Assembly: GCA_041665345.1 (NCBI GenBank)
Contig: JBAYJA010000003.1
Span: forward strand, 1 to 39,201
Length of the DNA stretch: 39,201 nucleotides
From: Patescibacteria group bacterium
Lineage (GTDB): Bacteria > Patescibacteriota > Patescibacteriia > PEXW01
Direction of reading: 5' to 3'
How positions within the stretch are numbered: the first letter of the stretch is position 1; every line of letters starts with the position of its first letter. The notes below the pieces were generated by a model. That model saw only the letters and a list, made by a program, of their open reading frames with translations. It did no database searches and was not told the origin of the DNA. Positions 20,627 through 36,118 of the stretch are shown here, piece by piece. The translations under genes were made by a program, and so were the position numbers.

Positions 20627-21343
20627 ATGTCTGGACATTCCAAGTGGTCTACTATTAAACGGCAAAAGGGTGTTGCGGATGCCAAGCGCAGCTCAGTCTT
20701 TACCAAACTTGGCAAAGCAATTGTGGTGGCTGCCCGGCTGGGCGGAGCTGACCCGGCTATGAACTTCCGTCTTCGGCTGGCTGTGGAAAAAGCACGCGAG
20801 GCCAGCATGCCCAAAGACAACATTGAGCGAGCCATTGCCAAGGGTAGTGGTACGGCCGAGGGTCAGCAGTTGGAAGAGGTAACCTACGAAGGTTTTGGAC
20901 CTGGTGGCACCGCCATCATCGTGGAAGCGGTGACCGATAACCGCAACCGCACTGTGCATGAGGTAAAAACCTTATTTAGCAAGCACGGCGGTACCATGGG
21001 GAATGAGAATAGTGTACGGTGGCAATTTGACCGACGGGGGGTGCTTCGTATTGCCGCAGAACACCTACCCAAGGATCACGACACCTTTGCACTGCAGATG
21101 ATTGAAGAAGGCGCCGAAGATGTGAAAGATGATCCAGAAGGAATCACTTTGCTGACGCAACCCGAGGCATTGGAAAAAGTGAAAGTCGCGCTTGGGACCA
21201 CCCCTGTGGCATCTGCGGACATTGAATTCGTGCCCAAAACTCCCCTCCCTCTTTCTCCGGCGGACGCGGAGAAGCTGCACACGCTCACCGGCATTCTTGA
21301 AGACCACGCTGATGTCACCAACGTCTGGACGAACGGTGCGTAG
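20627..21343 (+). CDS. yebC: YebC/PmpR-family transcriptional regulatory protein
   Basis: MSGHSKWSTIKRQKG...FTKLGKAI...AR.GGADP..N..LR.A...A...MPKDNIERAI...G, full-length 238 aa. Confidence 0.9.
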   Translation: MSGHSKWSTIKRQKGVADAKRSSVFTKLGKAIVVAARLGGADPAMNFRLRLAVEKAREASMPKDNIERAIAKGSGTAEGQQLEEVTYEGFGPGGTAIIVEAVTDNRNRTVHEVKTLFSKHGGTMGNENSVRWQFDRRGVLRIAAEHLPKDHDTFALQMIEEGAEDVKDDPEGITLLTQPEALEKVKVALGTTPVASADIEFVPKTPLPLSPADAEKLHTLTGILEDHADVTNVWTNGA

Positions 21344-21374
21344 CCCCCATCGTAGCTCGAAGAGCGAAGGTGGG

Positions 21375-21842
21375 CGCGTTATCCTTGGCATTGACCCGGG
21401 GTTTGGGCGCGTGGGCTGGGGCGTCATCCAGCAAACTGCCAACAAACTAACGGCTATTGACTACGGGGTGATTGAAACCCCAGCGGGCACCCCTTTTGCC
21501 AAGCGCTTGCAGCTCATCTACAGCAAATTAACTGAGCTGATCCATTCCTACAAACCGCAAGTCGGTGGGGTTGAACGCCTCTTCTTCTCGCAGAACACCA
21601 CAACCGCCATGCAGGTGAGTGAGGCGCGCGGGGTGATCCTGCTCACGCTGGCGCAAGCCAAGATTCCCGTGCACGAGTGTACGCCGCAAGCCGTGAAGCA
21701 GACGCTCTCCAGCTACGGCCGCGCGGACAAAGCCCAGGTCCAGCGCATGGTCGCTACACTCCTTCATCTCCCTTCCATTCCCAAGCCTGACGATATCGCG
21801 GATGCCTTGGCCATTGCCATCACCGCCGCAACTTCCACATGA
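21375..21842 (+). CDS. ruvC: crossover junction endodeoxyribonuclease RuvC (5' end/start codon uncertain)
   Basis: RVILGIDPGFGRVGWGV... catalytic N-terminus and ...DIADALAIAIT C-terminus. There is no in-frame ATG/GTG/TTG between the yebC stop (21343) and the conserved ILGIDPG block, so the exact start is unresolved (nonstandard initiator or sequence error). The ORF-track start at 21192 overlaps yebC and is not credible. Confidence 0.75.
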   Translation, partial: RVILGIDPGFGRVGWGVIQQTANKLTAIDYGVIETPAGTPFAKRLQLIYSKLTELIHSYKPQVGGVERLFFSQNTTTAMQVSEARGVILLTLAQAKIPVHECTPQAVKQTLSSYGRADKAQVQRMVATLLHLPSIPKPDDIADALAIAITAATST

Positions 21843-23098
21843 AACGCATCGCCCTCATCAACGTGCACTGCGATCCACTCGAAAGCCTTGGATCCGCAGA
21901 AGCCGGCGGTCAAAATGTCTACGTCCAGCACCTTGCTAAGGCACTTGGCAAACGCGGTTACTATGTGGATGTCTTTTCCCGGCTCAACTCTCGCTCCAAA
22001 AAGGAACGCGTCCGGGTTTCCAAGCACGTGCAATTCATCCGCCTCGTCGCTGGCCACCGGCAGTTCATCCCCAAGAATAAACTGGGGCCACTGCTGCCTG
22101 AATTCATTAGCAACTTCCTGGCCTGGCAGAAACGTGAGGGTGTGCGGTACGACCTGCTGCACTCACACTACTGGGAGGCGGGCTGGGTAACCATGCAGCT
22201 GAAGTACATACTCAAAGTCCCACAGGTCCACACCTTCCACAGCTTGGGCATCATGCGCTACAACGCGCTGAAAGGATTTCGGGAGCAGAGCCTGGATACC
22301 ACGGAAATGAAGAAGCGTATTGCCATTGAAAAAGAAATTACGGAAAAAGCTGAGTGCATTCTGAGCACTAGCCCGTACGAACGTGAGTACCTGGAGAAGC
22401 ACTATGCTGCAAAATCTGAGAACATTCGCGTTGTCCCTTGTGGCGTGGATTTGCAACGCTTCCGACCCATTGACCGAAATGAGGCACGAAAAAAAATTAA
22501 TGCGCCAAACGGCGACAACCTTATTCTCTACACTGGTCGCATTGAGTGGCGCAAGGGCATTGGCACCCTGGCCATTGGCGTCGCTAAACTCTTCAAGCAC
22601 CACCCAGAGCTGCGAGGAAAAACCTGGCTGTACATTGTCGGCGGCAACCTGGGCCGCCGGGCAGAGCCCGAAGTCCGGGAGGAAATCAAACGACTGAAAG
22701 ATGTGTGCCGAGAGTATGGGATACGTGATCGCACCGTATTTACCGGCGCCGTGCAGCAAGAAAAACTCCACTTCTACTACTCAGCGGCAAACGTCTGCGT
22801 CATCCCCTCCTACTACGAGCCTTTTGGCATGGTGCCGTTGGAAGCCATGGCCTGCAAAGTGCCGGTGATCGCCTCTGATACCGGTGGCCTGCCGTACACG
22901 GTTCGGAATATGAAGAGCGGGATTTTAGTCCCCGTTCGCAACCCGGGTGCCATCGCCCATCGCTTAGCCGACGTCCTGACCAAGCGCGAGCTGGCAGAGA
23001 AACTGGTGCGAGGAGGCCGGGAACTTGCAAAGACCACCTTTAGCTGGCGGCTGATTGCGAAGGGCGTCGCCGAGGTGTACGAACGGCTGGTGAAGTAA
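21839..23098 (+). CDS. GT4 glycosyltransferase, sucrose-phosphate-synthase-like (SPS/MshA-type GGQNVYV family)
   Basis: N-terminal MKRIALINVHCDPLESLGSAEAGGQNVYVQHLAKALGKRGYYVDVFSR (SPS/MshA-type signature); C-terminal GT-B E-x7-E region YEPFGMVPLEAMA; 419 aa, like minimal cyanobacterial SPS. Start overlaps the ruvC stop (ATGA). Confidence 0.7.
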   Translation: MKRIALINVHCDPLESLGSAEAGGQNVYVQHLAKALGKRGYYVDVFSRLNSRSKKERVRVSKHVQFIRLVAGHRQFIPKNKLGPLLPEFISNFLAWQKREGVRYDLLHSHYWEAGWVTMQLKYILKVPQVHTFHSLGIMRYNALKGFREQSLDTTEMKKRIAIEKEITEKAECILSTSPYEREYLEKHYAAKSENIRVVPCGVDLQRFRPIDRNEARKKINAPNGDNLILYTGRIEWRKGIGTLAIGVAKLFKHHPELRGKTWLYIVGGNLGRRAEPEVREEIKRLKDVCREYGIRDRTVFTGAVQQEKLHFYYSAANVCVIPSYYEPFGMVPLEAMACKVPVIASDTGGLPYTVRNMKSGILVPVRNPGAIAHRLADVLTKRELAEKLVRGGRELAKTTFSWRLIAKGVAEVYERLVK

Positions 23099-23175
23099 GA
23101 GTTTCAACTATACGAATCGACTCTACTGCGATTTTTTGTAGCCTAAAATGGGACTTATAGTGTAAACTGGAAACC

Positions 23176-23943
23176 ATGGATGACCATCCAACTCCTTCAA
23201 CGATTAATTTTTCCCTTACTCTTCCGCTCTATAACGAGGGGAGTATTCTGCAAAAAAATTTAACTTCTATCCACACAATTTTATCTGGGAAAGGGTCATT
23301 TTCCTTCGAAGTTATCGTTATTGATGATGCTAGTAAAGACGACACAGCTCGCAGCGCAAAACAGTTTTGTGACCATCTACCAAATTGGCATTTCCTGCAA
23401 AATGAAAAAAATCTTGGCCGGGGTGGTACGGTAATGCGGGGTTTTCGTGAATCACGGGGAACGATCGTTGGCTTTATTGACGTCGACTGCGAAGCTTCGC
23501 CAATGTACCTGTTGGATTTCATTCCGGATTTACTCGCACATAAAGTTGATGGGATTACCGGCATGCGCATATACCCATTTTCATTTTCAACATTCCTTCG
23601 CGCTGGGACAAGCTACCTCTATCGCCAACTTGTGCAACTATTTTTACGCGTAGCGTACAAGGACAGGCAATCTGGGTATAAAACATTTCGTCGGGAAGCA
23701 ATTTTACCACTCCTAGCGTACACAAAAAATCAGCATTGGTTTTGGGACACGGAGATTATGGTCATTGCACACCTGGCTGGTTTACGTATTGAGGAAAGGC
23801 CCATTTTGTTCTACCGTGACACTGCAAAAAAATCTACGGTGAAACTCTTTCGAGACAGTATGCTGATGGTGAGGGAACTCTTTCGCTTTCGAGCACGTAT
23901 GCCGCAACTTGCGGCTGACTTAGCCGAACGCACGAACCGCTAA
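23176..23943 (+). CDS. GT2 glycosyltransferase (polyprenyl-phosphate sugar transferase, DPM1/GtrB-like)
   Basis: LTLPLYNEGSIL, VIVIDDASKDDT (DxD-type nucleotide-sugar-binding acidic motif), second acidic motif IDVDCE; 255 aa. Visibly more A/T-rich than the flanking genes. Confidence 0.8.
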   Translation: MDDHPTPSTINFSLTLPLYNEGSILQKNLTSIHTILSGKGSFSFEVIVIDDASKDDTARSAKQFCDHLPNWHFLQNEKNLGRGGTVMRGFRESRGTIVGFIDVDCEASPMYLLDFIPDLLAHKVDGITGMRIYPFSFSTFLRAGTSYLYRQLVQLFLRVAYKDRQSGYKTFRREAILPLLAYTKNQHWFWDTEIMVIAHLAGLRIEERPILFYRDTAKKSTVKLFRDSMLMVRELFRFRARMPQLAADLAERTNR

Positions 23944-23945
23944 GC

Positions 23946-24686
23946 ATGGAGTCGCAGCTGTACCACACTTTTGCGCAAAATGAGATGACTCATTGGTGGT
24001 TTGTGGGTCGGCGGGAAATTTTTTCCGCGGTCTTCAAGAAATTACTGCAAAAAAAAGAATTACAAATCTTAGACGTAGGGTGCGGAACAGGGGGCAACCT
24101 ACCACTCCTCGCTGGCTATGGAAACGTCGTTGGGATTGATAATAGCCCCACGGCCGTGGCGTACGCAAAAACCCAAGGATACACATCCGTAATTTGTGCC
24201 GATGCATCCAAGCTCCCATTTGCAGACAACTCCTTTGACTGTGTCGTGGCAATTGACATTATCGAGCACATGCAAGACGATTCCGCATTCGTCAAAGAGC
24301 TCCACCGGGTACTCACACCCGAGGGATTTGCGGTACTTTCAACGGCCGCTTTTTCTTTTTTGTGGAGCTCACACGACACTCGAAACCAACATTGGCGACG
24401 GTACACCAAAAAGCAGCTTACTGCGTGCTTTCCAAAGAATCTCTGGCTTTCGAAGATCGTGCGATACTACAACTTCATTTTTTTTCCAGTGATTGCAGTC
24501 ATTCGCCTGTGCCAAAAGTTGATACCGGAAAGGACCCCAAAAGAGGGGGCGGCGTGGGAACTTGCAACCCCACCCACCCTATTCAATGCTGTACTTCACA
24601 GTGTCCTTGCCGCCGAAAGATTCTTTTTGCGATTTCCAATACCCTGGGGGGTTTCTCTACTAGCGGTATACCAAAAAAGGAAGTGA
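23946..24686 (+). CDS. class I SAM-dependent methyltransferase
   Basis: Motif I ILDVGCGTGGNL, GIDNSP, FDCVVAIDIIEHMQD; 246 aa; part of the A/T-rich cassette. Confidence 0.8.
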   Translation: MESQLYHTFAQNEMTHWWFVGRREIFSAVFKKLLQKKELQILDVGCGTGGNLPLLAGYGNVVGIDNSPTAVAYAKTQGYTSVICADASKLPFADNSFDCVVAIDIIEHMQDDSAFVKELHRVLTPEGFAVLSTAAFSFLWSSHDTRNQHWRRYTKKQLTACFPKNLWLSKIVRYYNFIFFPVIAVIRLCQKLIPERTPKEGAAWELATPPTLFNAVLHSVLAAERFFLRFPIPWGVSLLAVYQKRK

Positions 24687-24691
24687 GGCAG

Positions 24692-25585
24692 ATGCATATC
24701 GCCATGTTTGGGGGGACAGGATACGTTGGGAGTGCTTTGCGCGCACATTTGGCTAGCCAACGTATTCGAGTGAGTGTTTTTTCACCCCACTCCCCTAGCC
24801 CACTCTACCCTCTGGAAACCCACGTGGTTGCCGACCCATGGTCTGCCAGAATTGAACCCGGGGTATTTACGCATATCCTTGACTTCTACGGCGTATCTGG
24901 AGATGCGGCCTGTGCTCGGAATCCGCAGGAGGCAGCGTATAGAAACGTAGACTCGGTTCGTGCGCTCATGCATGCAGCGGCGGGTACAGGCATTGATAGA
25001 TTCGTCTATGTCTCTACTGCTTCAGTGTTTGATGATGGTGTCCAGAAAACGGGGAATGAATTTTTTGAAAACGATGTGCCTCGTCCTGCAACAGTGTACG
25101 GCGATACAAAGCGAATTGCGGAAAATCTACTCCTATCACAAGAAAAGGTACCCTGCACAATTATTCGCCATCCAACAATCTATGGCCTATCGCCGTGCAT
25201 GCGATGGGACACATTGATGCAATTTTGCGTTCAGCAAGCAAAAAAAGAGGGGGTGGTGCGCATGTTTGGGGATGGGAGTGCGTTTCGCCCCCTCGCCGCG
25301 TTGTCACACGTTGTTGCTGGATACGCACATGTGCTACATTCTCCCCCACCTTCACAGTCTTGCTTCCACATTGTTTCTGAGAATGAGCCAATTCGTAACT
25401 ACCTAGAGAGAATCCAGCAGGTTGCCAAGGAATGTGGGCAGCGTATTAGCGTGGAAACGGTAGAGCAGTCCTACGTCCCAAGCTATCGGGTGCACAGTTC
25501 TTTCCCCTATACCAACCGACCAGAGTATTCTTTCGAGCTCCTTCAAGCTATTTGGAAAGCGGCGGTCGGTCGCAATCACCTGTAG
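24692..25585 (+). CDS. NAD-dependent epimerase/dehydratase (SDR family)
   Basis: Start at ATG 24692 with SD AAGGAAGTGAGG. N-terminal GGTGYVGS Rossmann motif, catalytic YGDTK (YxxxK). The ORF-track 5' extension to 24362 overlaps the methyltransferase and is rejected. Confidence 0.8.
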   Translation: MHIAMFGGTGYVGSALRAHLASQRIRVSVFSPHSPSPLYPLETHVVADPWSARIEPGVFTHILDFYGVSGDAACARNPQEAAYRNVDSVRALMHAAAGTGIDRFVYVSTASVFDDGVQKTGNEFFENDVPRPATVYGDTKRIAENLLLSQEKVPCTIIRHPTIYGLSPCMRWDTLMQFCVQQAKKEGVVRMFGDGSAFRPLAALSHVVAGYAHVLHSPPPSQSCFHIVSENEPIRNYLERIQQVAKECGQRISVETVEQSYVPSYRVHSSFPYTNRPEYSFELLQAIWKAAVGRNHL

Positions 25586-25646
25586 CTGGCGCTTGATTGC
25601 CAAAGGCGTGGCCGAAGTGTACGAACGAATGGTGGAGAAAAAATAA
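25576..25646 (+). pseudogene. relic 3'-end fragment of an SPS-like GT4 gene (duplicate of 23034-23098)
   Basis: CACCTGTAGCTGGCGCTTGATTGCCAAAGGCGTGGCCGAAGTGTACGAACGAATGGTGGAG...TAA is about 80% identical to the last about 65 nt of the GT4 at 21839..23098 (..SWRLIAKGVAEVYERLVK*). It would encode SWRLIAKGVAEVYERMVEKK*. The epimerase stop TAG lies inside it. Confidence 0.6.
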
Positions 25647-25657
25647 CTTTACCGGCG

Positions 25658-26731
25658 CTAGGTCTCCGTACGATCGGTTCGGATTTTTTGTATTCGCTCC
25701 GCCCGCTGCAGCACTTCCGCAGCGTAGCTAATACTCTCAGGACCAAGCCGATCACCTTTTTCAACGTAGATTGCTTTCAGGGCTCCATCTTCTCCCATGA
25801 CCCTACGGAAGCTACTCTTCCCAGGTTTTTCCGGGGCTGACGCATCAACCGCGGAAACAAGTTCTGACTTTGCGCCACCAACCACCACAGCTTGCAACTT
25901 CCCTGACCGCATGAGCATGTCGGTGTCATTCCCGCTGTCACCCGCCACCAAACCTTTTTCCACATTCGTAAGCTTCGCTACGTAGTCAACGGCTCCGGCT
26001 TTGGTTATGGGCAGAACGTCCAGGCAGTACTTTTTTCGTGGTTCACCCTCGTGCTCACGGTTGTAGCCAATTTCCTCGCAGGCCACCAGCTCCTGACCGG
26101 GAAAGGCTGTGGCCGCCTCTTGCATCACTCCCTCCACTCCTGCCGGTGCGTCAGCGAAAAAGTAAAAGCTGAGCTTGAATTCCTGCACCGCCTGGTTCAC
26201 CGCTTCGGGCTCCGGGTTAGCGAGGTACCGCCTTTCTGCCTCGGGTTTCTGGTATACGACCTCAGCAGCTTGGGCAGGTTGACTGACGAGAAAGGCACTG
26301 GCGGCAGCGGCAATTTCTGGCCGGTTGAAGTGCTTTTCTTCCAGCAGCATCTTCCGATACGCTTCATCTCTTCGGTACGTACCGTCGGGCTGCAGGACGT
26401 GGATTTCCGTTCCCACAGAACCAATGAGCACTGGGAATTTTGGCAACTCCCCAGCTGCCTGCCGCTTCTGAATACCAGCTAGGTCATTCCCGGTCACGGC
26501 AACCAGTGGATACTCCAGCTCCTCCGCCTTCGCAAAAAGCACTTCCGATTCCTGCTGCCGGTCTTTGCGGTGGAAGGTGTTATCAATGTCCGTAAACCCA
26601 ACAGTAAAGCCCTCACCCCGTTCAGCTTGCTTGGCTTTCATTGCTAGATACGGTGAATCTCGGTAAACCGCCAAAGCCTGCTCGAGTTCTGCATCTGGGT
26701 TGTACTGCTCTCTACCTTCAAATGACATCAC
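25658..26731 (-). CDS. HAD-IIB phosphatase, sucrose-phosphate-phosphatase (SPP)-like
   Basis: HAD motif I FTDIDNTF (DxDxT), motif II VAVTGN, motifs III/IV K...GDSGNDTDML characteristic of the SPP/S6PP family; 357 aa. Confidence 0.7.
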   Translation of the reverse strand: MMSFEGREQYNPDAELEQALAVYRDSPYLAMKAKQAERGEGFTVGFTDIDNTFHRKDRQQESEVLFAKAEELEYPLVAVTGNDLAGIQKRQAAGELPKFPVLIGSVGTEIHVLQPDGTYRRDEAYRKMLLEEKHFNRPEIAAAASAFLVSQPAQAAEVVYQKPEAERRYLANPEPEAVNQAVQEFKLSFYFFADAPAGVEGVMQEAATAFPGQELVACEEIGYNREHEGEPRKKYCLDVLPITKAGAVDYVAKLTNVEKGLVAGDSGNDTDMLMRSGKLQAVVVGGAKSELVSAVDASAPEKPGKSSFRRVMGEDGALKAIYVEKGDRLGPESISYAAEVLQRAERIQKIRTDRTET

Positions 26732-26785
26732 GATATGGTGTAAGTAAGGTATACTACCAGTACTCTACCACTTACCTTTGCCCGT

Positions 26786-27835
26786 ATGAAGAAGCTCCGG
26801 ATTGCGCAGCTGGTTCCGTTTGAAGAAACTGTCCCTCCCACCAAGTACGGCGGCACAGAGCTCGTCGCAGCAAACCTCTGCGATGGGTTGGTGAAACAAG
26901 GACATGACGTCACCCTCTTCTCCGTGGGCGGTTCCAAGACCAAGGCCAAGTTGGTGAAGATTTTTCCCGGCTCACTTCGCGCCATGACTGGCACCGACGT
27001 GAAGCAACGAGAATCTTTGAAGTACATGGGCGTGGGCAAGGTGCTCACCGCGGTGGCGGCTGGAAAATTCGACATTGTCCACAACCACATTGGCTGGCGC
27101 GTGCTGCCCTTCACCGGCATGATCCCCCACCCTGTGGTCACCACGCTCCACGGACCCTTGGACATTGGCTACCAGCAAATGGTGTACAAGCCCTACAGCC
27201 ACACCCCGTTCGTTTCCATATCCAACAACCAGCGCAAACCCCTGAAGCTCAACTACGCGGCCACCGTGTACAACGGTATTCATGTGGAAAAGTTTGCCTA
27301 CCTGGAGAAGAAGGATGACTACCTGGCGTTTTTGGGCCGCATGAGCCCAGAGAAAGGTCCGGTGCAGGCCATCCAGGTGGCAAGGAAAACTAAACGTCGT
27401 TTGATAATGGCCGCGAAAGTGGATGCGGTGGATGTGAAGTTCTTCACCGAGAAGGTGAAACCGCTCATTGACGGCAAGCAAATCAAATTCTTGGGTGAAG
27501 TGGATCACGTTGGAAAATCCAAACTCCTGTCCCGCGCTGCAGGCTTGCTGGCGCTCATCCAGTGGGAAGAGCCCTTTGGCCTCTTCATGGCAGAGGCTAA
27601 TGCCTGCGGCACGCCGGTCATTGCCATGGCACGGGGAGCCGCGCCTGAGGTGATTGCCCACAAGCAGACTGGCTTCCTGGTGCACTCCAATGACGAAGCG
27701 GCGCGCATGGTGAGCAAGCTGGGAACAATTAGACCCGCGGCCTGCCGAAAACGAGCGGAGCAGTACTTTTCCGTGGAAGCAATGGTCGCTGGGTACCTGG
27801 CGGTGTACCAAAAGCTCATCCGGCAGTGGCGGTAA
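26786..27835 (+). CDS. GT4 glycosyltransferase (small, ~350 aa), paralog a
   Basis: N-terminal KKLRIAQLVPFEETVPPTKYGGTELVAANL..GH.VTLF; C-terminal GT-B motif WEEPFGLFMAEANACGTPVIA (E-x7-E). Paralogous to 28827..29885 and 29882..30922. Confidence 0.8.
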   Translation: MKKLRIAQLVPFEETVPPTKYGGTELVAANLCDGLVKQGHDVTLFSVGGSKTKAKLVKIFPGSLRAMTGTDVKQRESLKYMGVGKVLTAVAAGKFDIVHNHIGWRVLPFTGMIPHPVVTTLHGPLDIGYQQMVYKPYSHTPFVSISNNQRKPLKLNYAATVYNGIHVEKFAYLEKKDDYLAFLGRMSPEKGPVQAIQVARKTKRRLIMAAKVDAVDVKFFTEKVKPLIDGKQIKFLGEVDHVGKSKLLSRAAGLLALIQWEEPFGLFMAEANACGTPVIAMARGAAPEVIAHKQTGFLVHSNDEAARMVSKLGTIRPAACRKRAEQYFSVEAMVAGYLAVYQKLIRQWR

Positions 27836-28830
27836 ATCCACATATGACTCGGACCGCCCTCCTGAAGCACGTTCGCGGCCTCCTGCAGAAACGCGGGTTA
27901 ACCCCAGATGCCGATGTGAAAGAAATGCTCAACCACCAGCGACGGTTTTTTCGTACGCGCTGCGTGGATGCAAAGGGCCGGGCCTACACCTTCAAGGTGT
28001 ACCTCATGCGCGTGCCAACCACGCGGCACGACTTCCAGCACGAAATTGCTTTCTACCACTTCACGGCCAAAGCGCGGCTGAACCAATTTCCTCGCTGGGT
28101 GGAAGGAAATCGAACCGGAGCACACCCCTGGATTCTCTACCACTACATACCCGGCGAGCTCTTCACGGCGTACCTCCGCAAACATCGGAACCACGTTCCA
28201 CCAAAGCTCATCGCCAACCTCAGCCACATGCTGGCACACTACGGCCAGCTGCCCATTCCTCTGGCTACACGCCGGCTCCTCCACCTCCAAGCACACCGCG
28301 CCAGTGACTTTACTGCCCGCTTTCGAACCTACGCTCGGGGGAAAAACGGCCAGACACTTCGGACGTACCTCAGTGATGCTGAGCTTGAAGTTGCTGCACG
28401 CATTGTGGCGTTCCACCAGCTCGAACGGCATACCCGGCACCAATTAGGCATTAGCCACGGCGACTTAAGTACAAATAACCTCCTCGTGGATCAGGGACGC
28501 TTTGCGGTACTAGACTGGGAGCATATTCAAATTGCCTCCCCGGCGTACGACGTGGCGGAACTCTGGGTCAAAGAATTCAGCCGCGCACCCTGGCGGAACC
28601 GGCTGGTAAAAAAAGTTGCTGACCTGCAGCCAGACCACGCTGCCTTTAGCGCGCTCTTCGCCATTGAGGTACTACTTTTCTGCCTCCGGGATATTCTCCT
28701 CCACCACCGCATCCTCTCGGAGCTGCACCACACCAAGAATAAAGTGATTGTCCGTAAACTCTTACGCTACTACGTTCGCACATTCCGCGCCGGGCTGCAT
28801 GGCTTTTCCTCGCTTATGAAAAATGCATGA
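27826..28830 (+). CDS. APH/choline-kinase-family phosphotransferase (putative sugar or small-molecule kinase)
   Basis: Brenner catalytic motif ISHGDLSTNNLLVD and downstream LDWEH (DxE metal-binding). 334 aa; overlaps the upstream GT4 stop by 10 nt and the downstream GT4 start by 4 nt. Confidence 0.65.
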   Translation: MAVNPHMTRTALLKHVRGLLQKRGLTPDADVKEMLNHQRRFFRTRCVDAKGRAYTFKVYLMRVPTTRHDFQHEIAFYHFTAKARLNQFPRWVEGNRTGAHPWILYHYIPGELFTAYLRKHRNHVPPKLIANLSHMLAHYGQLPIPLATRRLLHLQAHRASDFTARFRTYARGKNGQTLRTYLSDAELEVAARIVAFHQLERHTRHQLGISHGDLSTNNLLVDQGRFAVLDWEHIQIASPAYDVAELWVKEFSRAPWRNRLVKKVADLQPDHAAFSALFAIEVLLFCLRDILLHHRILSELHHTKNKVIVRKLLRYYVRTFRAGLHGFSSLMKNA

Positions 28831-29885
28831 ACAAATCTCGCAGACTCCGCATTGCCCAAGTTGCTCCCCTGGCTGAACGCGTTCCACCCCGCAAGTACGG
28901 CGGTACCGAATTGGTCATTGCAAATTTGGTGCAAGGCTTGGTCAAGCGCGGACACAGCGTGACACTCTTCGCGCGGTCCGATTCCGACACGCCTGCAAAG
29001 CTGGTTCCCGCCTACCACCCTGACCCGCGCGCGACCAACCGCAGCCGTATTCGGGGCTACAGCGTACCAGCCTTTTGGCAAATGCTGCAGTACGGCCATG
29101 TCTTTGAGCACGCCAACGATTTTGACATCATCCACATGCACGTGGGATCGAGTAGCTTCCCTTACACCCGGCTGGTACAAACGCCGTGCGTGCTCACGCT
29201 GCATGGCCGTTTGAACACGAGTGAAGCGAAAATTGTGCACCAAGCCTACCCAGAAATTCCCCTGGTCTCCATTTCTAACAACCAGCGTGAACCGCTCCCC
29301 AAACTGAACTTCATTCGCACCGTGTACAATGGCATTGACGTTGCCAAATTCCGCTACAACGACCGCCCCAAAAAGTACCTAGCATTCCTGGGTCGGATGA
29401 GCCCAGAGAAGGGCCCAGTAGAAGCAATGCAGGCGGCAAAGAAAGCGGGCTTACCTTTGGTCATGGCCGCAAAAGTGGACACCGTGGATGAAGCGTACTT
29501 CATGAAGAAAGTCCGACCGTTCATTGATGGGAAGCGGGTGATCTTCCTTGGTGAAGTAAACCATGCAAAAAAGGTGGATCTCCTCCGTAATGCCTTGGGT
29601 TTGCTGGCGCTCATCCAGTGGGAAGAACCTTTTGGCTTGTTCATGACCGAAGCCATGGCCTGCGGCACACCAGTGATTGCCACCCGCCGGGGCGCCGTGC
29701 CAGAAATTGTGGTGGATGGGAAAACGGGGTTCATTGTTGCCTCCGTTGCCGGGGCAGCTAAGGCAATTGCCAAGCTGCAGACCATTGATCGTGCGGCCTG
29801 CCGGGCACGAGTGGAAAAAGGCTTCTCCCTTGATACAATGGTAGATGGGTACCTCGCGGCCTATGCCAAACTCCTGAAAAAATGA
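28827..29885 (+). CDS. GT4 glycosyltransferase (small), paralog b
   Basis: RLRIAQVAPLAERVPPRKYGGTELVIANL...GHSVTLF; WEEPFGLFMTEAMACGTPVIA; closely related to 26786..27835 (same blocks throughout). Confidence 0.8.
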   Translation: MNKSRRLRIAQVAPLAERVPPRKYGGTELVIANLVQGLVKRGHSVTLFARSDSDTPAKLVPAYHPDPRATNRSRIRGYSVPAFWQMLQYGHVFEHANDFDIIHMHVGSSSFPYTRLVQTPCVLTLHGRLNTSEAKIVHQAYPEIPLVSISNNQREPLPKLNFIRTVYNGIDVAKFRYNDRPKKYLAFLGRMSPEKGPVEAMQAAKKAGLPLVMAAKVDTVDEAYFMKKVRPFIDGKRVIFLGEVNHAKKVDLLRNALGLLALIQWEEPFGLFMTEAMACGTPVIATRRGAVPEIVVDGKTGFIVASVAGAAKAIAKLQTIDRAACRARVEKGFSLDTMVDGYLAAYAKLLKK

Positions 29886-30922
29886 AGAAACCAAAGATAG
29901 CTATCCTCGCCTCCAACCTCTTCCCCATTCCGCCGCAGCGTACGGCCGCGGCTGAGCTTATTGTCTCCCAAATTACCGAAGGGCTTGTGAAACGTGGCTT
30001 TCCGGTGACGCTCTACGCTGCCGGTGATACCAAAACCAAAGCGCGCTTGGTTGCCGCCACCCCCCGCGCCTCCATCCGTGAGCCCAAGATTGGCATGGAA
30101 AACCACAAGGCCTACGAGCTCATCCAAACCAGCAATGCCTACCGAGATGCCACGCGCTGGGGCGCCAACGTCCTGCTCTCCCACGTGCCCATGATGAGCG
30201 CGCACTTCTCCCCGTTCGCCCCTTTTCCATCCACTGCGCTCCTGCACAGTCCGCCAACTTTCACGGACCAAGCGGTCATGCGAACCTACAGCAAGACGCA
30301 GAGCTACATTGCCATTTCCAAAGCGCAGCGCAACTTGGCGCCTGGCGCACGTTTCATTCAGACCATTCAGCACGGCGTGGATCTACACAAACTCCCCTTC
30401 CACCCCAAGCCCGGCACGTACCTGGCCTTCCTGGGTCGCATCCGCAACTACAAAGGCGTACATGAGGCTATTACCGTGGCGCATCGGCTCAACCTACCTT
30501 TACGCATTGCCGGCCCCATTGGCGACCCCGTGTACTTTGCCCAACAAGTGAAGCCCTACCTCAACAGCCGCATCCGGTACATTGGTGAAATTACCCACCG
30601 AGAGAAAGGCGCCTTCTTGGGCAATGCCCTGGCCACACTCTTCCCCATTTCGTGGGATGAACCCTTTGGCTTGGTGCTCATTGAATCATTGGCCGTGGGC
30701 ACACCCGTGGTGGCATTCAAGCGTGGCTCGGTCCCAGAAATTCTCAAGGATGGGAAAACTGGTTTCATTGTCAAAAATACTGCAGCCATGGCGCAAGCAG
30801 TCCGGCACATCGACGCAATTGACCGAGCGGTCTGCCGCAAAGACATGGAAAAACGTTTCAGCCTTGACCGCATGGTGGATGACTATGCTGCTTTACTTAC
30901 ACGTCTAGCCGCCGGTAAGTAG
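29882..30922 (+). CDS. GT4 glycosyltransferase (small), paralog c (more divergent)
   Basis: KIAILASNLFPIPPQRTAAAELIVSQITEGLVKRGFPVTLYA; WDEPFGLVLIESLAVGTPVVA; start overlaps the upstream stop (ATGA). Confidence 0.75.
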   Translation: MKKPKIAILASNLFPIPPQRTAAAELIVSQITEGLVKRGFPVTLYAAGDTKTKARLVAATPRASIREPKIGMENHKAYELIQTSNAYRDATRWGANVLLSHVPMMSAHFSPFAPFPSTALLHSPPTFTDQAVMRTYSKTQSYIAISKAQRNLAPGARFIQTIQHGVDLHKLPFHPKPGTYLAFLGRIRNYKGVHEAITVAHRLNLPLRIAGPIGDPVYFAQQVKPYLNSRIRYIGEITHREKGAFLGNALATLFPISWDEPFGLVLIESLAVGTPVVAFKRGSVPEILKDGKTGFIVKNTAAMAQAVRHIDAIDRAVCRKDMEKRFSLDRMVDDYAALLTRLAAGK

Positions 30923-31034
30923 AACAAGGAACTCGGAACCGAGAACAGAGAACCAGAATGGGAAAAAGCAGGAGTGAACCTCCCCTCTGGTTCCAAGTTC
31001 ATTGTTCTCAGTTCAAAGTTCCCTTCCAAAGTAG

Positions 31035-31097
31035 CCATCCAACCATACCTTTCAACGATACTCGCTGCCACAACCAAACCCTCACCCCTTTGCAACT
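31035..31097 (+). promoter_or_regulatory. conserved C-rich upstream element, copy C (core only)
   Basis: CCATCCAACCATACCTTTCAACGATACTCGCTGCCACAACCAAACCCTCACCCCTTTGCAACT|ATG. Shares the ATACTCGCTGCCACA(C/A)CCAAACC(C/T)TC(T/C/A)ACC core with copies A and B but lacks the CCAATACGGTATACT proximal module; no SD. Confidence 0.5.
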
Positions 31098-32030
31098 ATG
31101 CCTGTCCGCTCACCTGAACTTCGGCTTGACCCCATCCACGATCGGGCAGTGGTCATTGCGCCAAAGCGGAACATCCGTCCGCACGATATTCCAGACCCCT
31201 ACGTCCGAACGGTTCGGCCGCAGCAGTGCCCATTTTGCCCAGAAAGCATTAAGGGGAAACACCCCACAGCGCACCTTGGCCGGGGAAAAAATCTGATTCG
31301 CGCCATTGCCAATGACTACCCAGCCGTGAGTTTGAAGACTCCCAAAGCCTACGGCTACCAGGAAGTCATCATTGACACCCCGGATCATGACGCGGACTTG
31401 GGCGAGCTGAGCGTGACGCAGCTTGATCACTTACTGAGTTTCTACCAGCTACGAACAAAAGCAATTGCCCGGATTCCCAACATTGAGTACATTCTCATTT
31501 TCAAAAATCACGGAGGCAAATCCGGCGCCAGCTTGGTGCACGCCCACTCGCAGGTGTTTGCCACGGGCTTTGTGCCGCCGCACATTGTGCTCAAACTCCA
31601 GAACGTTCGGCAATACAAGCTGGAGCACGGCCACTGCTACTACTGCAAGCTTCTGGCTGATGAGAAGAAGGGTCCCCGCCGCATTCTCAGCAACAAGTAC
31701 GTTACGGCGTTCGCGCCCTACGCCTCAGCCTACCCGTACGAAGTCTGGCTCTTCCCCAACCGGCACCTGGATAACTGTACTCGCCTGAGCTTGGTGGAGC
31801 GTCGGGCGTTTGCCGCTGCACTCCAATCGATCCTCAAGAAGCTCAACCTCATCCGCGCGTCGTACAACTACTACCTCCACCAGACCCTTACTGACCAGGA
31901 CGAACACTTCTACCTGCGCATCGCCCCGCGCGAGCAAACCTGGGGCGGGGTAGAAGTCGGCTCCCGTCTGGTCATCAACGGCGTGGCCCCTGAGGACGCG
32001 GCGAAGTTTTTCCGGAAAGGAATCCGCTAG
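31098..32030 (+). CDS. GalT-branch HIT-superfamily nucleotidyltransferase (galactose-1-phosphate uridylyltransferase / NDP-sugar phosphorylase-like)
   Basis: Zn-knuckle CPFCPE near the N-terminus and active-site HxHxQ (LVHAHSQVFA), typical of GalT (HPHGQ) and ADP-glucose phosphorylase relatives; 310 aa. Confidence 0.7.
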   Translation: MPVRSPELRLDPIHDRAVVIAPKRNIRPHDIPDPYVRTVRPQQCPFCPESIKGKHPTAHLGRGKNLIRAIANDYPAVSLKTPKAYGYQEVIIDTPDHDADLGELSVTQLDHLLSFYQLRTKAIARIPNIEYILIFKNHGGKSGASLVHAHSQVFATGFVPPHIVLKLQNVRQYKLEHGHCYYCKLLADEKKGPRRILSNKYVTAFAPYASAYPYEVWLFPNRHLDNCTRLSLVERRAFAAALQSILKKLNLIRASYNYYLHQTLTDQDEHFYLRIAPREQTWGGVEVGSRLVINGVAPEDAAKFFRKGIR

Positions 32031-33949
32031 CTGTTCCAGACGATACGATACTCACCAAACGTGTGTACGTTTTTGTACTTGATATCGGGAGTTGGCGGGG
32101 CATCATCACGGAAAATCACGTAGTACCCTTGGGTCAAAAGGTCATTGAGAAATGCTGCGGTTTGTGATTGGAAAAGCCACGTCTCAAATGGCTGACGATA
32201 GCCAACGGGTGTGTACCCGCCAAAGTAGTACAGGTAAAAATCAATGTCGGGGACGGCAAAGTACACCTTGGTACTCATTTGCGTTACCGCTTGAATCGTT
32301 TGGAGGGTGTCAGCGTACGTCTTTGGGTCAGCAAAACTACTTGGCTGATGTATTTGCCCAGTGCGAAGACGCTGTACTTGCATGCCAAGAGTACTCACCA
32401 CCCTGTTTGAGTAAGAAACAAAGAACAGGCAAACGATAGTAGCCAGACCGGCGAGCGCAAACTTTCGGAATGAGTGACCCGCCCGCCCTGCTTTCAGCTG
32501 GTACATCAAATCTATGAAATAGAAGAGCCCAAAAAGAAAAATGGTCGAAATGCTAATGATGCTATTTTCGTGACTCCGACCAAAGAAGTACATTGAGTTA
32601 CCAATGGAGAACACAAGGAGAAAAACACCTAGGGTATACGCACGTGAACTGAAGCGGTGACGATATTTGAGCAGGAAGATCCAGGCAAGGCTGAGGCAAA
32701 TGATGACGAACCAATAGAATGACTGGCGTGAAATTGGCATAAAACCAATCCCATAGCGTGAAAAATTTGTTTCAGGCCCATCTTTCGGAACCCGGAGAGC
32801 AAAGAAGCTTATAGCGGTTCCCATTCCAATAATGGTTACGTTAACCCAGATTGAACGGATAAATGTACGTGCTGCAAAAAGTATTTTTTTGGGCGATCGA
32901 ATGATCCCCTGATCAACGACCTGAAGTGCAAAGAGAATGAAAGCCAGCTCAAAAAATGAAATGGCATAAATGAGGCCAAAATGTCTGTGGAGAAATACCA
33001 GGACGACTACGGTGAGGCCAAAAAGCCAATGACGTAGGCCCTTAAAGTACAAAATGATCAACAGTACAAACCACAAGTCCAAGCGCAAGGGGGTTGTCTG
33101 TAGCCACTGCACTGGATCAACCATTGAAGCGTACACGCGAATAATAATGTAAGAAAAAAAGAATCCATAGGCTAAACTCTTTTCTCGGAATACTTTTTTC
33201 CCAAAGATGAGCAGGCCAACTGCAAAGAAAAAGTAGGAGGCCTGCACTACCCAAGCAAAGGCATTGATATCCCAGTGGAATTGTAGCCAAATTGCAGGAA
33301 GGAATGACGAGAGAATATCGTACTGAAAGTAAATTTGTGACCAAGGAATGCTGTGCAAAATCTTCAAGGCTGGATGAAAAAAATAGGCGTAATCGTAAAA
33401 TGAAATTGGGGCGGTGGCAACAAAAAAGAGTGGCGCACTCGCAAGCACAACCAACCAGAAAAACCAACGCGCGCTAGCATATCGCCAAGCGGCAGCAGCA
33501 GCTCCAGCCACAAGGCTTAGGTGGAAGAGCAGCTGCCACGAGTATCGAAAATCGACATTGACGTTTGGCACGAGTGGATTGATTCGAAAAAGTGCAACGA
33601 ATGCAGCACAAAGAAGTAGCCATGCAGACCATGGGCGGCGCTGCCAACCCAGCCCACTGAAAAAACGCGTGTACAGGACGCCACACAAGAAAACAATCAA
33701 CCATACAAGGGCGTAAAGGACGAATGGCTCATAGCCATCATGCTGCGTCGAGCGAGTCCAGAGTTTCATCCAGAGCGTGACATCCGCTACCTGGGAGAGA
33801 TCATGGAACTGCCAGATGAACGGAGCAAAAGAAAAAAACACTTGGTGAGCACCGAAAACAATGAGCGTAGAGAGGACAAAATATTGTACAAATCGATTCT
33901 GCGGAACACGGGTGTATACATCCGTCAAAACTTCCTTCCAGGTTTTCAT
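32027..33949 (-). CDS. large polytopic membrane protein (640 aa) with C-terminal soluble domain; function unknown (GT-C-like architecture)
   Basis: About 14 hydrophobic helices and a ~150-aa soluble C-terminal domain. Markedly A/T-rich coding sequence relative to neighbours; convergent 4-nt overlap with the GalT-like gene. Confidence 0.55.
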   Translation of the reverse strand: MKTWKEVLTDVYTRVPQNRFVQYFVLSTLIVFGAHQVFFSFAPFIWQFHDLSQVADVTLWMKLWTRSTQHDGYEPFVLYALVWLIVFLCGVLYTRFFSGLGWQRRPWSAWLLLCAAFVALFRINPLVPNVNVDFRYSWQLLFHLSLVAGAAAAAWRYASARWFFWLVVLASAPLFFVATAPISFYDYAYFFHPALKILHSIPWSQIYFQYDILSSFLPAIWLQFHWDINAFAWVVQASYFFFAVGLLIFGKKVFREKSLAYGFFFSYIIIRVYASMVDPVQWLQTTPLRLDLWFVLLIILYFKGLRHWLFGLTVVVLVFLHRHFGLIYAISFFELAFILFALQVVDQGIIRSPKKILFAARTFIRSIWVNVTIIGMGTAISFFALRVPKDGPETNFSRYGIGFMPISRQSFYWFVIICLSLAWIFLLKYRHRFSSRAYTLGVFLLVFSIGNSMYFFGRSHENSIISISTIFLFGLFYFIDLMYQLKAGRAGHSFRKFALAGLATIVCLFFVSYSNRVVSTLGMQVQRLRTGQIHQPSSFADPKTYADTLQTIQAVTQMSTKVYFAVPDIDFYLYYFGGYTPVGYRQPFETWLFQSQTAAFLNDLLTQGYYVIFRDDAPPTPDIKYKNVHTFGEYRIVWNS

Positions 33950-34183
33950 AAAATTTACTTATTGAGTACATCATGATACTACCTACTGATAGTTTACACT
34001 AAGTTCATACTTGCTAAATTGGAGCCGCCCACCAACAAGGGCAGATGTATACCATTGAATCGTTACCAGAAAAGCAAATGTTAGCCAAAAAGCATCCTAC
34101 TCAATCAGGGCTACAAAATTTAGTGGGTATTTGCCTACAGCTTTACGGCTTATAGCCTTTGGCGTCCTTGCTATACTACCCCC

Positions 34184-36046
34184 ATGCCCCAGTTAGACCC
34201 AAACCTCTGGATCGAAGGCGGATACTACGTGGATTTTGACTTGCTGGACCAGTTCCGCATTCTGGGTCCCAACAACCACGTCTACTGTGGGTTCATTGAT
34301 ATTCCCCGCCACCGCCTGCGCATTGATTCGGTGGAAGCCACACCCCAGGGCACGTGCATCATCAAAGGTCATTTCCAGAAATCGACGATCAATCTCTACT
34401 ATCCAGTGATGGGCGACATGCGCACCATGCGCGGACTGGTCGTTGACCCCAAAACCGGCGAGCTAATCACTTTCCTGGAACTCCGGCGCCGGGAAACCAG
34501 CCAGAGCGTGCCCATGTGGATTCATAAGAGTGTAGGCGCGGAAGGGAAGGCTTTGGTCTTCCGCCGCTCCTATGGCGAGCACTGGTACGGCACCACCTTC
34601 ACGTTTCCTAAGGGCGTGTCAGTGAAGCAAATCCAACGACCGTTTGGTGGGTTTCAGCTCACCACCAAGGCGCGGGAACTGCCGTTCACCATCACGGCGG
34701 AAACCAATGACATTGCCACCAAGACAACGACCTGCAGCGTCCTCCCAACGGAAGCGCTGGAGTGGTCCGTCTTTGGGAAGGACGCAAAAAACATCAAACG
34801 ATTTTGGCAACGCTCAAAAATTGAAGCTGACCACCTGATCACCTGGGGCAAAACCTCGGGCGACCGATTTGGGACGGTCTTCCCGCGCGACTGGATGGAG
34901 AGCGTCCTGCTGGGTGCTGGTGACATTCCGGCTGCGGTGGTGGACGAAATGATTGTGCGCTGCTTGGCGAATGTGGATAGCCGCGGACGCGCCTGGCACG
35001 AAGACGTGGTGGGTGAGTACCGCTACCGCCACGAACTTGCAGGCCGGGATTTGTTTGACCGGAAAATGATTGACATTGAACCATTGACGCTCTTGGCACT
35101 ACGATACGCCTCGCCCTACTTCTGGACACGGAAAGAGGCGGTGAAGAAGCTGCGGCGGATGGCCGGGTACGTCATTAGCCGCGCACAAGCGAAGCACTTC
35201 GTAGCGTTCAAAAAACGACCGGGGGCAAAGGCAATCAAAGATGAGCCGTACTACCTGGTGGGCAACTGGCGAGACAGCACCTGGGCCTTCAAAAAAGTGC
35301 ACCCCCACATTGCACCGTTTGACGTAAACGCAACGCTCTACCCCCTTGCCCTAAAGGAAATTCAGCTGCTGCAGCAGAAACTTGGGCTTCGGGTTCCCAA
35401 ACTGGACCAGCTGGTGAAGCGCTGGAGCGGGAAGCACCAGGCATTTGCATTCACCAATCCAGATAAACTTTCAGCCTTCGCCCTGGCGGTCTACGGTTTT
35501 TCGGCCAACCGCACCACAGCTCGGCAAAAAATTCACTTTAGCCAGCTGAAGGTGAACCACCTGGACGAGTGCACGCGGTACGCCTTGGGCGAGGGCGCAG
35601 AAATAGACTTGGTGAGCTTTGCAAAACGCTTAGCAGATCCCACGTACTTCTCTACCCCATCTGGCCCCACACTCGTTGCGGCAAATAACGGTATGGGCTA
35701 CACCTCACAGGAGTACCACGGCCTGGTGGTGTGGACGAAGCAAACCGCATTTACCGTGATGGGGCTCACCCGGCACCTCCAGCTGGGGAAGAAGCTCGGG
35801 TGGAAGCCCGCCAGTCTCACATTGCTCCGGCGAACGGCGTTGACGATTTGCCAGAGCATGCTCCACGTCTTCCAAACCCTGGATGCCGTACCCGAACTCC
35901 ACTACGATAACCATGGCACCCCACACTTCTTCACTGACCAGCAGGCTGTGGGCGAGCACATGAGCAAAGTGCAGCTCTGGTCGGCCTTGGGCGCCCGCCG
36001 GATATTCCGCGAATACTACAAACTCCTGCGGAAGAAAACCGCGTAG
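34184..36046 (+). CDS. hypothetical soluble protein (620 aa), no confidently recognisable domain
   Basis: Long uninterrupted ORF with host-like codon usage between the membrane gene and the PBP; no signal peptide or TM helix. Confidence 0.5.
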   Translation: MPQLDPNLWIEGGYYVDFDLLDQFRILGPNNHVYCGFIDIPRHRLRIDSVEATPQGTCIIKGHFQKSTINLYYPVMGDMRTMRGLVVDPKTGELITFLELRRRETSQSVPMWIHKSVGAEGKALVFRRSYGEHWYGTTFTFPKGVSVKQIQRPFGGFQLTTKARELPFTITAETNDIATKTTTCSVLPTEALEWSVFGKDAKNIKRFWQRSKIEADHLITWGKTSGDRFGTVFPRDWMESVLLGAGDIPAAVVDEMIVRCLANVDSRGRAWHEDVVGEYRYRHELAGRDLFDRKMIDIEPLTLLALRYASPYFWTRKEAVKKLRRMAGYVISRAQAKHFVAFKKRPGAKAIKDEPYYLVGNWRDSTWAFKKVHPHIAPFDVNATLYPLALKEIQLLQQKLGLRVPKLDQLVKRWSGKHQAFAFTNPDKLSAFALAVYGFSANRTTARQKIHFSQLKVNHLDECTRYALGEGAEIDLVSFAKRLADPTYFSTPSGPTLVAANNGMGYTSQEYHGLVVWTKQTAFTVMGLTRHLQLGKKLGWKPASLTLLRRTALTICQSMLHVFQTLDAVPELHYDNHGTPHFFTDQQAVGEHMSKVQLWSALGARRIFREYYKLLRKKTA

Positions 36047-36118
36047 CCCAGCTCTAGACATTCGCAGAAAAATCTTGTAGAGTAAGTTCTTGCCGAAACG
36101 TTAAACCGACGCCCAACC

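Follow-up and report, generated by a model that had tools for sequence, protein, structure and literature searches.

A conserved block of GT4 glycosyltransferases, a kinase and a GalT-like enzyme in Patescibacteria as the candidate core of a glucosylsucrose-type pathway

What could three related glycosyltransferases, a kinase and a nucleotidyltransferase make together in an ultra-small, presumably fermentative and symbiotic bacterium? The question is raised by positions 1 to 39,201 of contig JBAYJA010000003.1 (assembly GCA_041665345.1) of a Patescibacteria group bacterium, the whole stretch of DNA that was analysed and that we call the window. Its forward strand carries, at 26786-32030, five genes in the order GT4a-kinase-GT4b-GT4c-GalT-like, encoding three paralogous small transferases of family GT4, a kinase of the aminoglycoside phosphotransferase (APH) fold and a class-I nucleotidyltransferase of the HIT superfamily that resembles GalT. 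The initial annotation had described these genes as an operon of this composition, and the Pfam families and paralog identities agree with that description: all five open reading frames (ORFs) are present, the three GT4s each match Glycos_transf_1 and Glyco_transf_4, the kinase belongs to APH (PF01636), GalP_UDP_transf and DUF4931_N are found in the last gene, and GT4a is 55% identical to GT4b and 32% identical to GT4c. On balance we favour the view that a cytoplasmic pathway has this block at its core, one in which a gluco-oligosaccharide with alpha-1,2 linkages, of the glucosylsucrose or 'sucroglucan' type, is built on a sucrose primer and recycled. The pathway would be new in its setting, the best-supported reading being a variant of the cyanobacterial sucrose-phosphate synthase/glucosylsucrose synthase (SPS/GSS) system inside a storage-carbohydrate locus that extends across the Candidate Phyla Radiation (CPR).

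The three GT4s and their link to glucosylsucrose synthase

When GT4a (26786..27835, + strand, 349 aa), GT4b (28827..29885, +, 352 aa) and GT4c (29882..30922, +, 346 aa) were searched against solved structures, each matched over its whole length the entries 7FG9, 7FGA, 8X3Q and 8X3U, which are one and the same protein, TeGSS. The full-length matches reached E 1.3e-91 and 47% identity for GT4a (7FG9/8X3Q), E 3.1e-98 and 51% for GT4b, and E 1e-70 and 39% for GT4c, in alignments that span about 332 residues of proteins of similar length (about 345 aa). TeGSS, the product of tll1591 of Thermosynechococcus elongatus, is a UDP-glucose:sucrose alpha-1,2-glucosyltransferase, and its gene adjoins the sucrose-phosphate synthase gene tll1590 (PMC9909042). 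The window proteins are of the same small (~345 aa) GT-B GT4 type as TeGSS and Nostoc alr1000, with identities of 39-51%, and we assign all three to the retaining GSS family, GT4c as a divergent member.

The residues named in the TeGSS paper were mapped onto GT4a, GT4b and GT4c and onto their orthologs from three relatives (L001, L002 and L004). Tyr18 and Arg179 are important by mutation in TeGSS, and Lys184 and Glu256 bind UDP (PMC9909042). On the donor side Arg179, Lys184, Trp254 and Glu256 (TeGSS numbering) are invariant across the three paralogs, so that Arg179, Lys184 and Glu256 are kept as in TeGSS; two of the paralogs retain Tyr18. The acceptor-rim positions 10, 70, 74, 97, 117, 119 and 122 differ among GT4a, GT4b and GT4c; within each paralog the rim residues are essentially identical in the orthologs, with one exception, a Ser/Thr exchange at position 97 of GT4b. 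A shared donor site combined with rims that are specific to each paralog and conserved among its orthologs is the pattern expected of one donor and three acceptors. The three enzymes would be retaining glucosyltransferases with one donor site and three acceptor rims, probably serving successive intermediates or chain lengths. The earlier suggestion that they act in sequence on one oligosaccharide gains support from these rims and from their full-length homology to a processive alpha-1,2-glucosyltransferase. Unlike the window with its three subfunctionalised paralogs, cyanobacteria have one processive enzyme; they are the only source to date of published accounts of glucosylsucrose synthesis, with a single enzyme per genome (PMC9909042). 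Three diverged GSS paralogs would be a natural set for studying the evolution of acceptor and chain-length specificity.

A primer disaccharide could be made by the products of two further genes. The first encodes an SPS-like GT4 of 419 aa (21839..23098, +) that overlaps the stop codon of the RuvC gene and has TeSPS (6KIH) as its best match in the Protein Data Bank (PDB), at E 8.4e-92 and 311 bits, against 210 bits for the MshA structure. Once the numbering was calibrated on the Glu331-Pro332-Leu335-Glu339 string of TeSPS, it was found to keep His158, Glu331, Arg178, Arg249 and Arg253, with Arg105 changed to Lys; the catalytic roles of the His and Glu and the phosphate-binding roles of the Arg residues are known from TeSPS (PMC7264703). 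The second gene (25658..26731, -), divergent from GT4a, encodes a 357-aa HAD-IIB phosphatase of the sucrose-6F-phosphate phosphohydrolase (S6PP) family, which scores 68 bits on Pfam S6PP (PF05116; cutoff 20.3) with its DIDNT and GDSGND motifs intact and whose gene also adjoins GT4a in L002, L004, L006, L010, L012, L013 and L017. The window thus resembles the TeGSS/TeSPS system in having a TeSPS-like gene in the same locus, and a phosphatase of the sucrose-phosphate phosphatase (SPP) family is there as well. Together the two enzymes would make the primer from nucleoside diphosphate (NDP)-glucose and a sugar phosphate.

Recycling of the chain would fall to U620 (34184..36046, +, 620 aa), a soluble candidate alpha-glucosidase of clan GH-G in which an N-terminal beta-sandwich is followed by an (alpha/alpha)6 barrel, a GH176-like fold. 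It shares two-domain architecture and size with TgAMY (7VMA) and with the Arthrobacter A8F5 alpha-1,2-glucosidase; identity is only 15%, there is no Pfam or sequence-level match, and its putative catalytic residues are placed from motif spacing only. TgAMY is the founding GH176 member, and the other characterised enzyme of the family is an alpha-1,2-glucosidase whose kojibiose-binding residues are all kept in TgAMY (bioRxiv 10.64898/2026.07.01.735942). U620 was found only in loci with GSS-like GT4s, and in one of them (L046) it lies inside the operon. In relatives of the window, a GH100-like gene (alkaline/neutral invertase; 86.5 bits, cutoff 23.6) stands beside the HAD gene. We propose that U620 takes the chain apart and that in those relatives the invertase-like enzyme probably helps. 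From the family assignments and conserved residues given here, and from the synteny and co-occurrence that follow, we infer the chemical identity of the product and the working order of the three GT4s.

Conservation of the block within a storage-carbohydrate locus

One genome per species was scanned with an alignment of the GalT-like protein, and the best 80 of 391 relatives' loci were examined. The block occurs in at least 10 species (L008-L017), in seven as a complete copy and in three truncated at a contig end, with kinase identity down to 56%, and the kinase-bearing contigs all share the order GT4a-kinase-GT4b-GT4c-GalT-like; the idea that the five genes are conserved as a unit holds in these genomes. 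Upstream, the relatives carry the divergent S6PP-family HAD gene and, on several contigs, a GH100/GDE_C-like hydrolase gene between HAD and GT4a. The region from the gene after RuvC to HAD is variable, with GT2, methyltransferase and epimerase-like genes in the window and TrmB or EamA elsewhere. Since the block stays intact while its flanks vary, it is probably a functional unit and not merely inherited synteny.

Other Patescibacteria carry a different set of genes at the same place. Between RuvC and PBP1/DnaN/DnaA, an interval equivalent to 21192-38665 of the window, the Kerfeld-, Uhr-, Komeili- and Nomurabacteria usually have the order (GH15-like)-GlgA-GH57-GH57-APH kinase-(PHP)-GlgA-GalT-like, as in L089, L090, L070 and about 40 other loci. 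The GlgA proteins of these islands score above the TIGR02095 cutoff, and the two GH57 proteins match branching-enzyme models weakly (25-29 bits). The SPS-like GT4 that is kept after RuvC in the window's clade takes the position of a GlgA in other Patescibacteria. Most Patescibacteria recall the classical bacterial glycogen operon (GlgC-GlgA-GlgB) in carrying two GlgA and two GH57 at one locus. They differ from it in that GlgC is missing from the RuvC-to-PBP1 locus of the glycogen-type lineages, where an APH-fold kinase, often a PHP phosphoesterase, and the GalT-like enzyme are found instead; in the window's clade the difference goes further, GT5 and GH57 being wholly replaced.

Counts were made over the 55 species loci in which the sequence upstream of the GalT-like gene extends for 7.5 kb or more. 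GT5 (GlgA-type) genes were present in 43 of the 55 and an APH kinase in 44; GSS-like GT4s were present in nine, each of which has the kinase (9/9). As the pair of kinase and GalT-like enzyme is common to GT5- and GSS-type loci, it is the conserved core of the storage-carbohydrate locus, and the window's clade has swapped the glycogen enzymes for glucosylsucrose-type ones at that locus. The link to glucan metabolism that the initial annotation had drawn is strengthened by this synteny with the GlgA/GH57 glycogen operon. Two loci (L027 and L046) have the order GSS-GSS-KIN-GSS-GalT, both with U620 and with a GalT-like protein only ~50% identical to that of the window, and two others (L050 and L061) are mixed GT5/GSS loci.

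The setting differs from that of TeGSS in two further respects: the host is a non-photosynthetic Patescibacterium, and the transferase genes are interleaved with an APH-fold kinase gene and followed by a GalT-like gene, neither of which is mentioned in the cyanobacterial GSS literature that we found. If the proposed pathway is real, a rare alpha-1,2-glucan chemistry would reach beyond cyanobacteria into the CPR, where carbon storage bears on survival between hosts. The searchable literature yielded no account of DUF4931, of a glycogen operon in CPR bacteria or of glucosylsucrose in organisms other than cyanobacteria, and the common CPR operon GlgA-GH57-GH57-APH kinase-(PHP)-GlgA-DUF4931 is apparently undescribed.

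The kinase and the GalT-like enzyme

The catalytic residues expected of an active APH-fold enzyme are complete in the kinase (27844..28830, +, 328 aa), whose structural model is a confident one (pLDDT 92.6): the bilobal fold, the ATP-binding Lys/Glu pair, the H-G-D-x-x-x-x-N loop and the metal-binding Asp are present. Its family is narrow. A word-indexed search returned 25 proteins, mostly 56-77% identical, among them a protein listed by NCBI under 'Patescibacteria group bacterium' with which the window kinase is 100% identical, and an exhaustive search of representatives gave one cluster above 50% identity, the next relatives being at most 28% identical. A phmmer search of the kinase against the PDB gave catalytic-loop matches only (hygromycin and APH(3') kinases, E >= 0.002). 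A profile of the kinases from the glycogen-type islands gave generic APH, MPH and choline-kinase matches (E >= 4e-14) that carry no information on substrate, and no NCBIfam family was above its cutoff for the window kinase or 35 distant relatives. With the island kinases the window kinase shares 11-20% identity, and a hidden Markov model of its clade still detects them, at 14-82 bits.

Could the kinase be an aminoglycoside or macrolide resistance phosphotransferase that merely happens to lie among sugar genes? Its best Foldseek and PDB-profile matches are indeed APH(3'), APH(2'') and macrolide 2'-phosphotransferases. Those matches, however, have 11-18% identity and TM-scores of 0.43-0.60, and the NCBIfam APH models score far under their cutoffs, the best of them, APH(3'), at 28 bits against 205. 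An APH kinase holds the same operon position in 44 of the 55 species loci, always among glucan or GSS genes, unlike a mobile resistance gene. We regard a resistance function as extremely unlikely; the robust grouping with antibiotic kinases that had been named as a refutation of a role in sugar metabolism was not seen.

Some further observations concern the kinase position of the glycogen-type islands and the gene beside it. Proteins of 674 aa stand at that position in L062 (6523-8550), L068 (6474-8498) and L083 (6469-8493) and apparently consist of two tandem APH/choline-kinase-like domains, a reading for which Pfam was checked for L068 only; in L050 and L082 a pair of distinct, adjoining kinase genes takes the place of the fusion. 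The PHP protein encoded beside the kinase (L089:7630-8514, with equivalents in 17 loci) scores best, below cutoff, on the models of 3',5'-nucleoside bisphosphate phosphatase and RNase RNM.

The GalT-like protein (31098..32030, +, 310 aa; Pfam and NCBIfam, DUF4931) has the hallmarks of class-I GalT and HIT branch III, an H-x-H-x-Q motif with a nucleophilic His, a Cys-x-x-Cys plus His zinc site and two HIT-like half-barrels; C44-x-x-C47, H97 and H148-A-H150-S-Q152 are invariant among 22 diverse homologs. When a profile of the family, which is widespread in Patescibacteria at ~50% identity, was compared with solved structures, the closest was Arabidopsis At5g18200 (1Z84/2H39; 219 bits, E 9e-64), an ADP-glucose phosphorylase, followed by archaeal PaGalT (155 bits, E 3e-44) and EcGalT (107 bits, E 1e-29); no Ap4A phosphorylase appeared in this search at E < 0.01. 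The alignment with 1Z84 covers positions 2-308 of the 309-position profile, and the homology is thus full-length, with the H-x-H-x-Q motif and Cys-x-x-Cys/His zinc site shared. The greater closeness to ADP-glucose phosphorylase than to GalT is a ranking of scores and not a phylogeny; the NCBIfam GalT equivalogs are missed (TIGR00209 at 85.9 vs 102.1, NF008724 at 96.5 vs 448). Unlike At5g18200, the window protein is bacterial, is encoded by the last gene of a glycosyltransferase operon and is annotated only as DUF4931, its nucleotide and sugar specificity being a prediction. Interconversion of sugar-1-phosphate and NDP-sugar, the role first suggested for it, fits this closest solved relative, and DUF4931 gains a testable function, as an NDP-glucose phosphorylase or transferase.

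How, then, might the two enzymes serve a glucosylsucrose-type pathway? They would have been inherited from an ancestral storage-glucan operon. Most likely, one would phosphorylate a hexose or the sugar that is released while the other converts glucose-1-phosphate and NDP-glucose into each other, and together they would feed the transferases. For the kinase itself, whose substrate above all we infer, phosphorylation of a hexose or released sugar that feeds NDP-glucose formation is a tentative assignment, preferred because the kinase persists through the GT5-to-GT4 swap beside the GalT-like enzyme. Action on the stored glycan or its primer would fit the strong divergence of the kinase equally; in this variant the phosphate might be removed by the PHP protein in the glycogen-type islands and by the HAD phosphatase in the window's clade. 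The Leloir pair GalK-GalT and the NahK-GalT2 pair of Bifidobacterium (galacto-N-biose/lacto-N-biose, GNB/LNB) likewise combine a kinase, APH-fold in the case of NahK, with an enzyme of the GalT superfamily. The window GalT differs from theirs in being class I and ADP-glucose-phosphorylase-like, not class II, and C1 phosphorylation by the window kinase is a conjecture. Either way, a large and fast-evolving group of CPR proteins annotated as 'aminoglycoside phosphotransferase family' gains a testable function.

A more specific scheme, which we think unlikely, would make the pair a route from free glucose to NDP-glucose that dispenses with GlgC and PGM and spends one ATP. An anomeric kinase would form alpha-glucose-1-phosphate and leave ADP as a by-product, on which the HIT enzyme would draw, working in the reverse direction and yielding ADP-glucose and phosphate. 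In most lineages this NDP-glucose would supply GlgA; in the window's clade it would supply the transferases of glucosylsucrose type.

The kinase and the GalT-like enzyme also bear on the analogy first drawn for this block, a maltose-1-phosphate-type glucan pathway with a maltokinase (Pep2/Mak) analog, a GlgM-like GT4 and a GalT-like enzyme supplying sugar-1-phosphate or NDP-sugar. The position of the locus, equivalent to that of the glycogen operon in other Patescibacteria, and the closeness of the GalT-like protein to ADP-glucose phosphorylase would suit such a pathway. The transferases do not: GT4b matches GlgM (6TVP) at E 6e-11 against 3e-98 for TeGSS, with TeGSS matches of E 1e-70 to 3e-98 over the three paralogs, and the GlgM model TIGR02149 gives the GT4s 48-65 bits against a cutoff of 302. 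Neither does the kinase, in which the specific similarity, the extra N-terminal domain (~440 aa in total) and the TreS/GlgE association of maltokinases (Mak/Pep2) are lacking, and neither the window nor the Pfam-annotated loci of relatives yielded a GlgE, TreS or GH13 gene near the block. We therefore drop the analogy as very unlikely.

Several observations weigh against the glucosylsucrose-type pathway that we favour. In TeGSS, Trp10 stacks against the fructose unit of sucrose (PMC9909042); all three paralogs have lost it, with Glu in GT4a, Ala in GT4b and Leu in GT4c, so that sucrose as the acceptor is not assured. Tyr18 is kept in GT4a and GT4b; GT4c has Thr there. The Y18F mutant of TeGSS is nearly inactive (PMC9909042), and the paralog just before the GalT-like gene in L027 and L046 is also without this Tyr. 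The HAD phosphatase is below the SPP equivalog cutoffs (TIGR01485, 33 vs 184), and the SPS-like GT4 scores highest in NCBIfam on MshA (293 vs a cutoff of 462) and lower on SPS (157 vs 576), both below cutoff; with MshA ahead of SPS, its acceptor is uncertain. L027 and L046 have GSS-like genes with no clear SPS or SPP gene nearby, and the GH100-like gene is absent from the window. Neither sequence nor fold searches identified the substrate of the kinase, whose divergence from the island kinases would be easier to square with a change of substrate than with an unvarying role as a hexose kinase. The window also encodes GalU, above its NCBIfam cutoff, and the GalT-like enzyme is therefore not needed for UDP-glucose; finally, five of the 55 loci keep the GalT-like gene alone, with neither transferases nor kinase nearby.

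The next-best solved relatives of the GT4s, pterin glucosyltransferases at E 1e-22 to 1e-35, would allow for a non-sugar acceptor. The transferases might then glucosylate a small molecule such as a pterin, as cyanobacterial BGluT does, and the kinase might phosphorylate the aglycone or its glycoside. UDP-glucose:tetrahydrobiopterin glucosyltransferases are the second-best solved relatives of the three paralogs (E 6e-35, 9e-22 and 1e-31), and the loss of the fructose-stacking Trp10 would agree with such an acceptor. Against this, the E-values for TeGSS are lower by 40-70 orders of magnitude, carbohydrate enzymes make up the conserved neighbourhood (SPS-like, S6PP-like, GH100-like, GH176-like fold and GalT-like), and the locus replaces a glycogen operon. 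We consider a small-molecule acceptor quite unlikely.

Operon junctions, upstream regions and neighbouring genes

The initial annotation had given stop/start overlaps at three junctions. Those between kinase and GT4b (28827-28830) and between GT4b and GT4c (29882-29885) are true ATGA overlaps when read from the sequence. The third, between GT4a and kinase (27826/27835), is an artefact that arose because the first possible GTG was taken as the start codon. All of the 24 close kinase homologs compared (24/24) are 323-338 aa long and begin M-T/N-R-x-x-L-L-x-H-V, which corresponds to ATG 27844 and not to GTG 27826, and the six extra residues VAVNPH that the GTG start would add have a counterpart in none of them. 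The real GT4a/kinase junction is therefore an 8-nt spacer, tight but not overlapping. No type of overlap is more frequent in bacterial operons than the four-base ATGA one, and so these two point to an operon and to nothing more specific; of the tight co-expression that had been deduced from them, the operon is what stands.

The junctions vary among relatives. Taken in order, the four distances are -4, 3, -4 and 3 nt in L001, 57, 4, -4 and 3 nt in L002, 113, 3, -4 and 2 nt in L004, and -4, -1, 273 and 2 nt in L006, so that the GT4b/GT4c ATGA overlap is the only junction that is widely kept. GT4c and the GalT-like gene are separated by 2-3 nt in these four relatives, against 175 nt in the window (30923..31097, +), where the spacer holds a ~95-nt imperfect hairpin (30928-31022; RNA fold -43.7 kcal/mol, z -2.74). 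The hairpin spacer is specific to the window's lineage, in a comparison that covered L001, L002, L004 and L006, the homologous stretch (~4140-4241) of the closest relative, L008, being N-masked. Rfam gave no match at E <= 1 over 25000-34500.

A 'shared upstream element' had also been proposed for the GalT-like gene. All that was seen to recur before other genes is a weak TATACT/GATACT box; the hairpin arm used as a query occurs once in the window, and a scan for sigma-70 promoters and terminators did not rise above shuffled expectation, flagged none of these boxes and placed no site before GT4a or the GalT-like gene. The proposal is hardly borne out by these results. The 54-nt divergent spacer between HAD and GT4a (26732-26785) contains a near-palindrome, GGTATACTACC / GGTAGTATACC, which could be a -10-like box usable in both directions. 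Similar TATACT or TATAAT boxes precede the genes whose starts are at 1961, 20627 and 34184.

The genes around the block bear on one more explanation, that the product is a cell-surface glycan (glycoprotein, glycolipid or wall polymer) which is exported, the kinase phosphorylating the growing glycan in the manner of WaaP, KdkA or POMK. Genes with envelope or glycosylation functions abound in the window, namely GT2, methyltransferase, epimerase/RmlD-like and DUF2079 genes, the gene of a GT-C-like 640-aa protein, and PBP1, and the best NCBIfam match of GT4b and GT4c is the archaeal N-glycosylation protein Agl16. However, the GT2, methyltransferase and epimerase-like genes, which lie between the SPS-like GT4 and HAD, and the 640-aa gene, which lies in a low-GC stretch, are missing at the same positions in relatives. 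Nor is the block consistently accompanied by a gene for a flippase, a polyprenyl-phosphate transferase or a polymerase. No transmembrane-like segment was found in GT4a, GT4b, GT4c, the HAD phosphatase, the SPS-like GT4, the GalT-like protein or U620, the only hydrophobic features among the conserved partners being one weak stretch each in GT4c and the kinase. The Agl16 match is weak as well, with 71-76 bits against a cutoff of 575. Export as a surface glycan is, on this evidence, improbable. An Agl16-like N-glycosylation reading of the GT4s was rejected, the scores being ~8-fold under the cutoff.

Some further genes of the window were noted. The 640-aa protein (32027-33949, -) has at least 12 hydrophobic segments, is rich in Phe, Trp and Tyr and has no family match; its stretch has a GC content of 0.46 against 0.55-0.57 around it, and none of the relatives has the gene at that position. 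Between the GalT-like gene and U620, it has the appearance of an insertion peculiar to the lineage, and its product that of a GT-C-like membrane protein. The epimerase/RmlD-like ORF (GTG 24362; region 23946-25585) shares 325 nt with the methyltransferase gene before it; since the Pfam match begins only at residue 111, translation probably starts near 24690 instead. YebC, RuvC and PBP1 are encoded in the window as well, together with a T4SS-pilin-like protein of a kind typical of CPR. Lastly, a 1009-aa ORF (16648-19677) has an unusual architecture, a fusion in which a class-V aminotransferase that is cysteine-desulfurase-like (354 bits) is followed by a SAM-methyltransferase-like region at the C-terminus.

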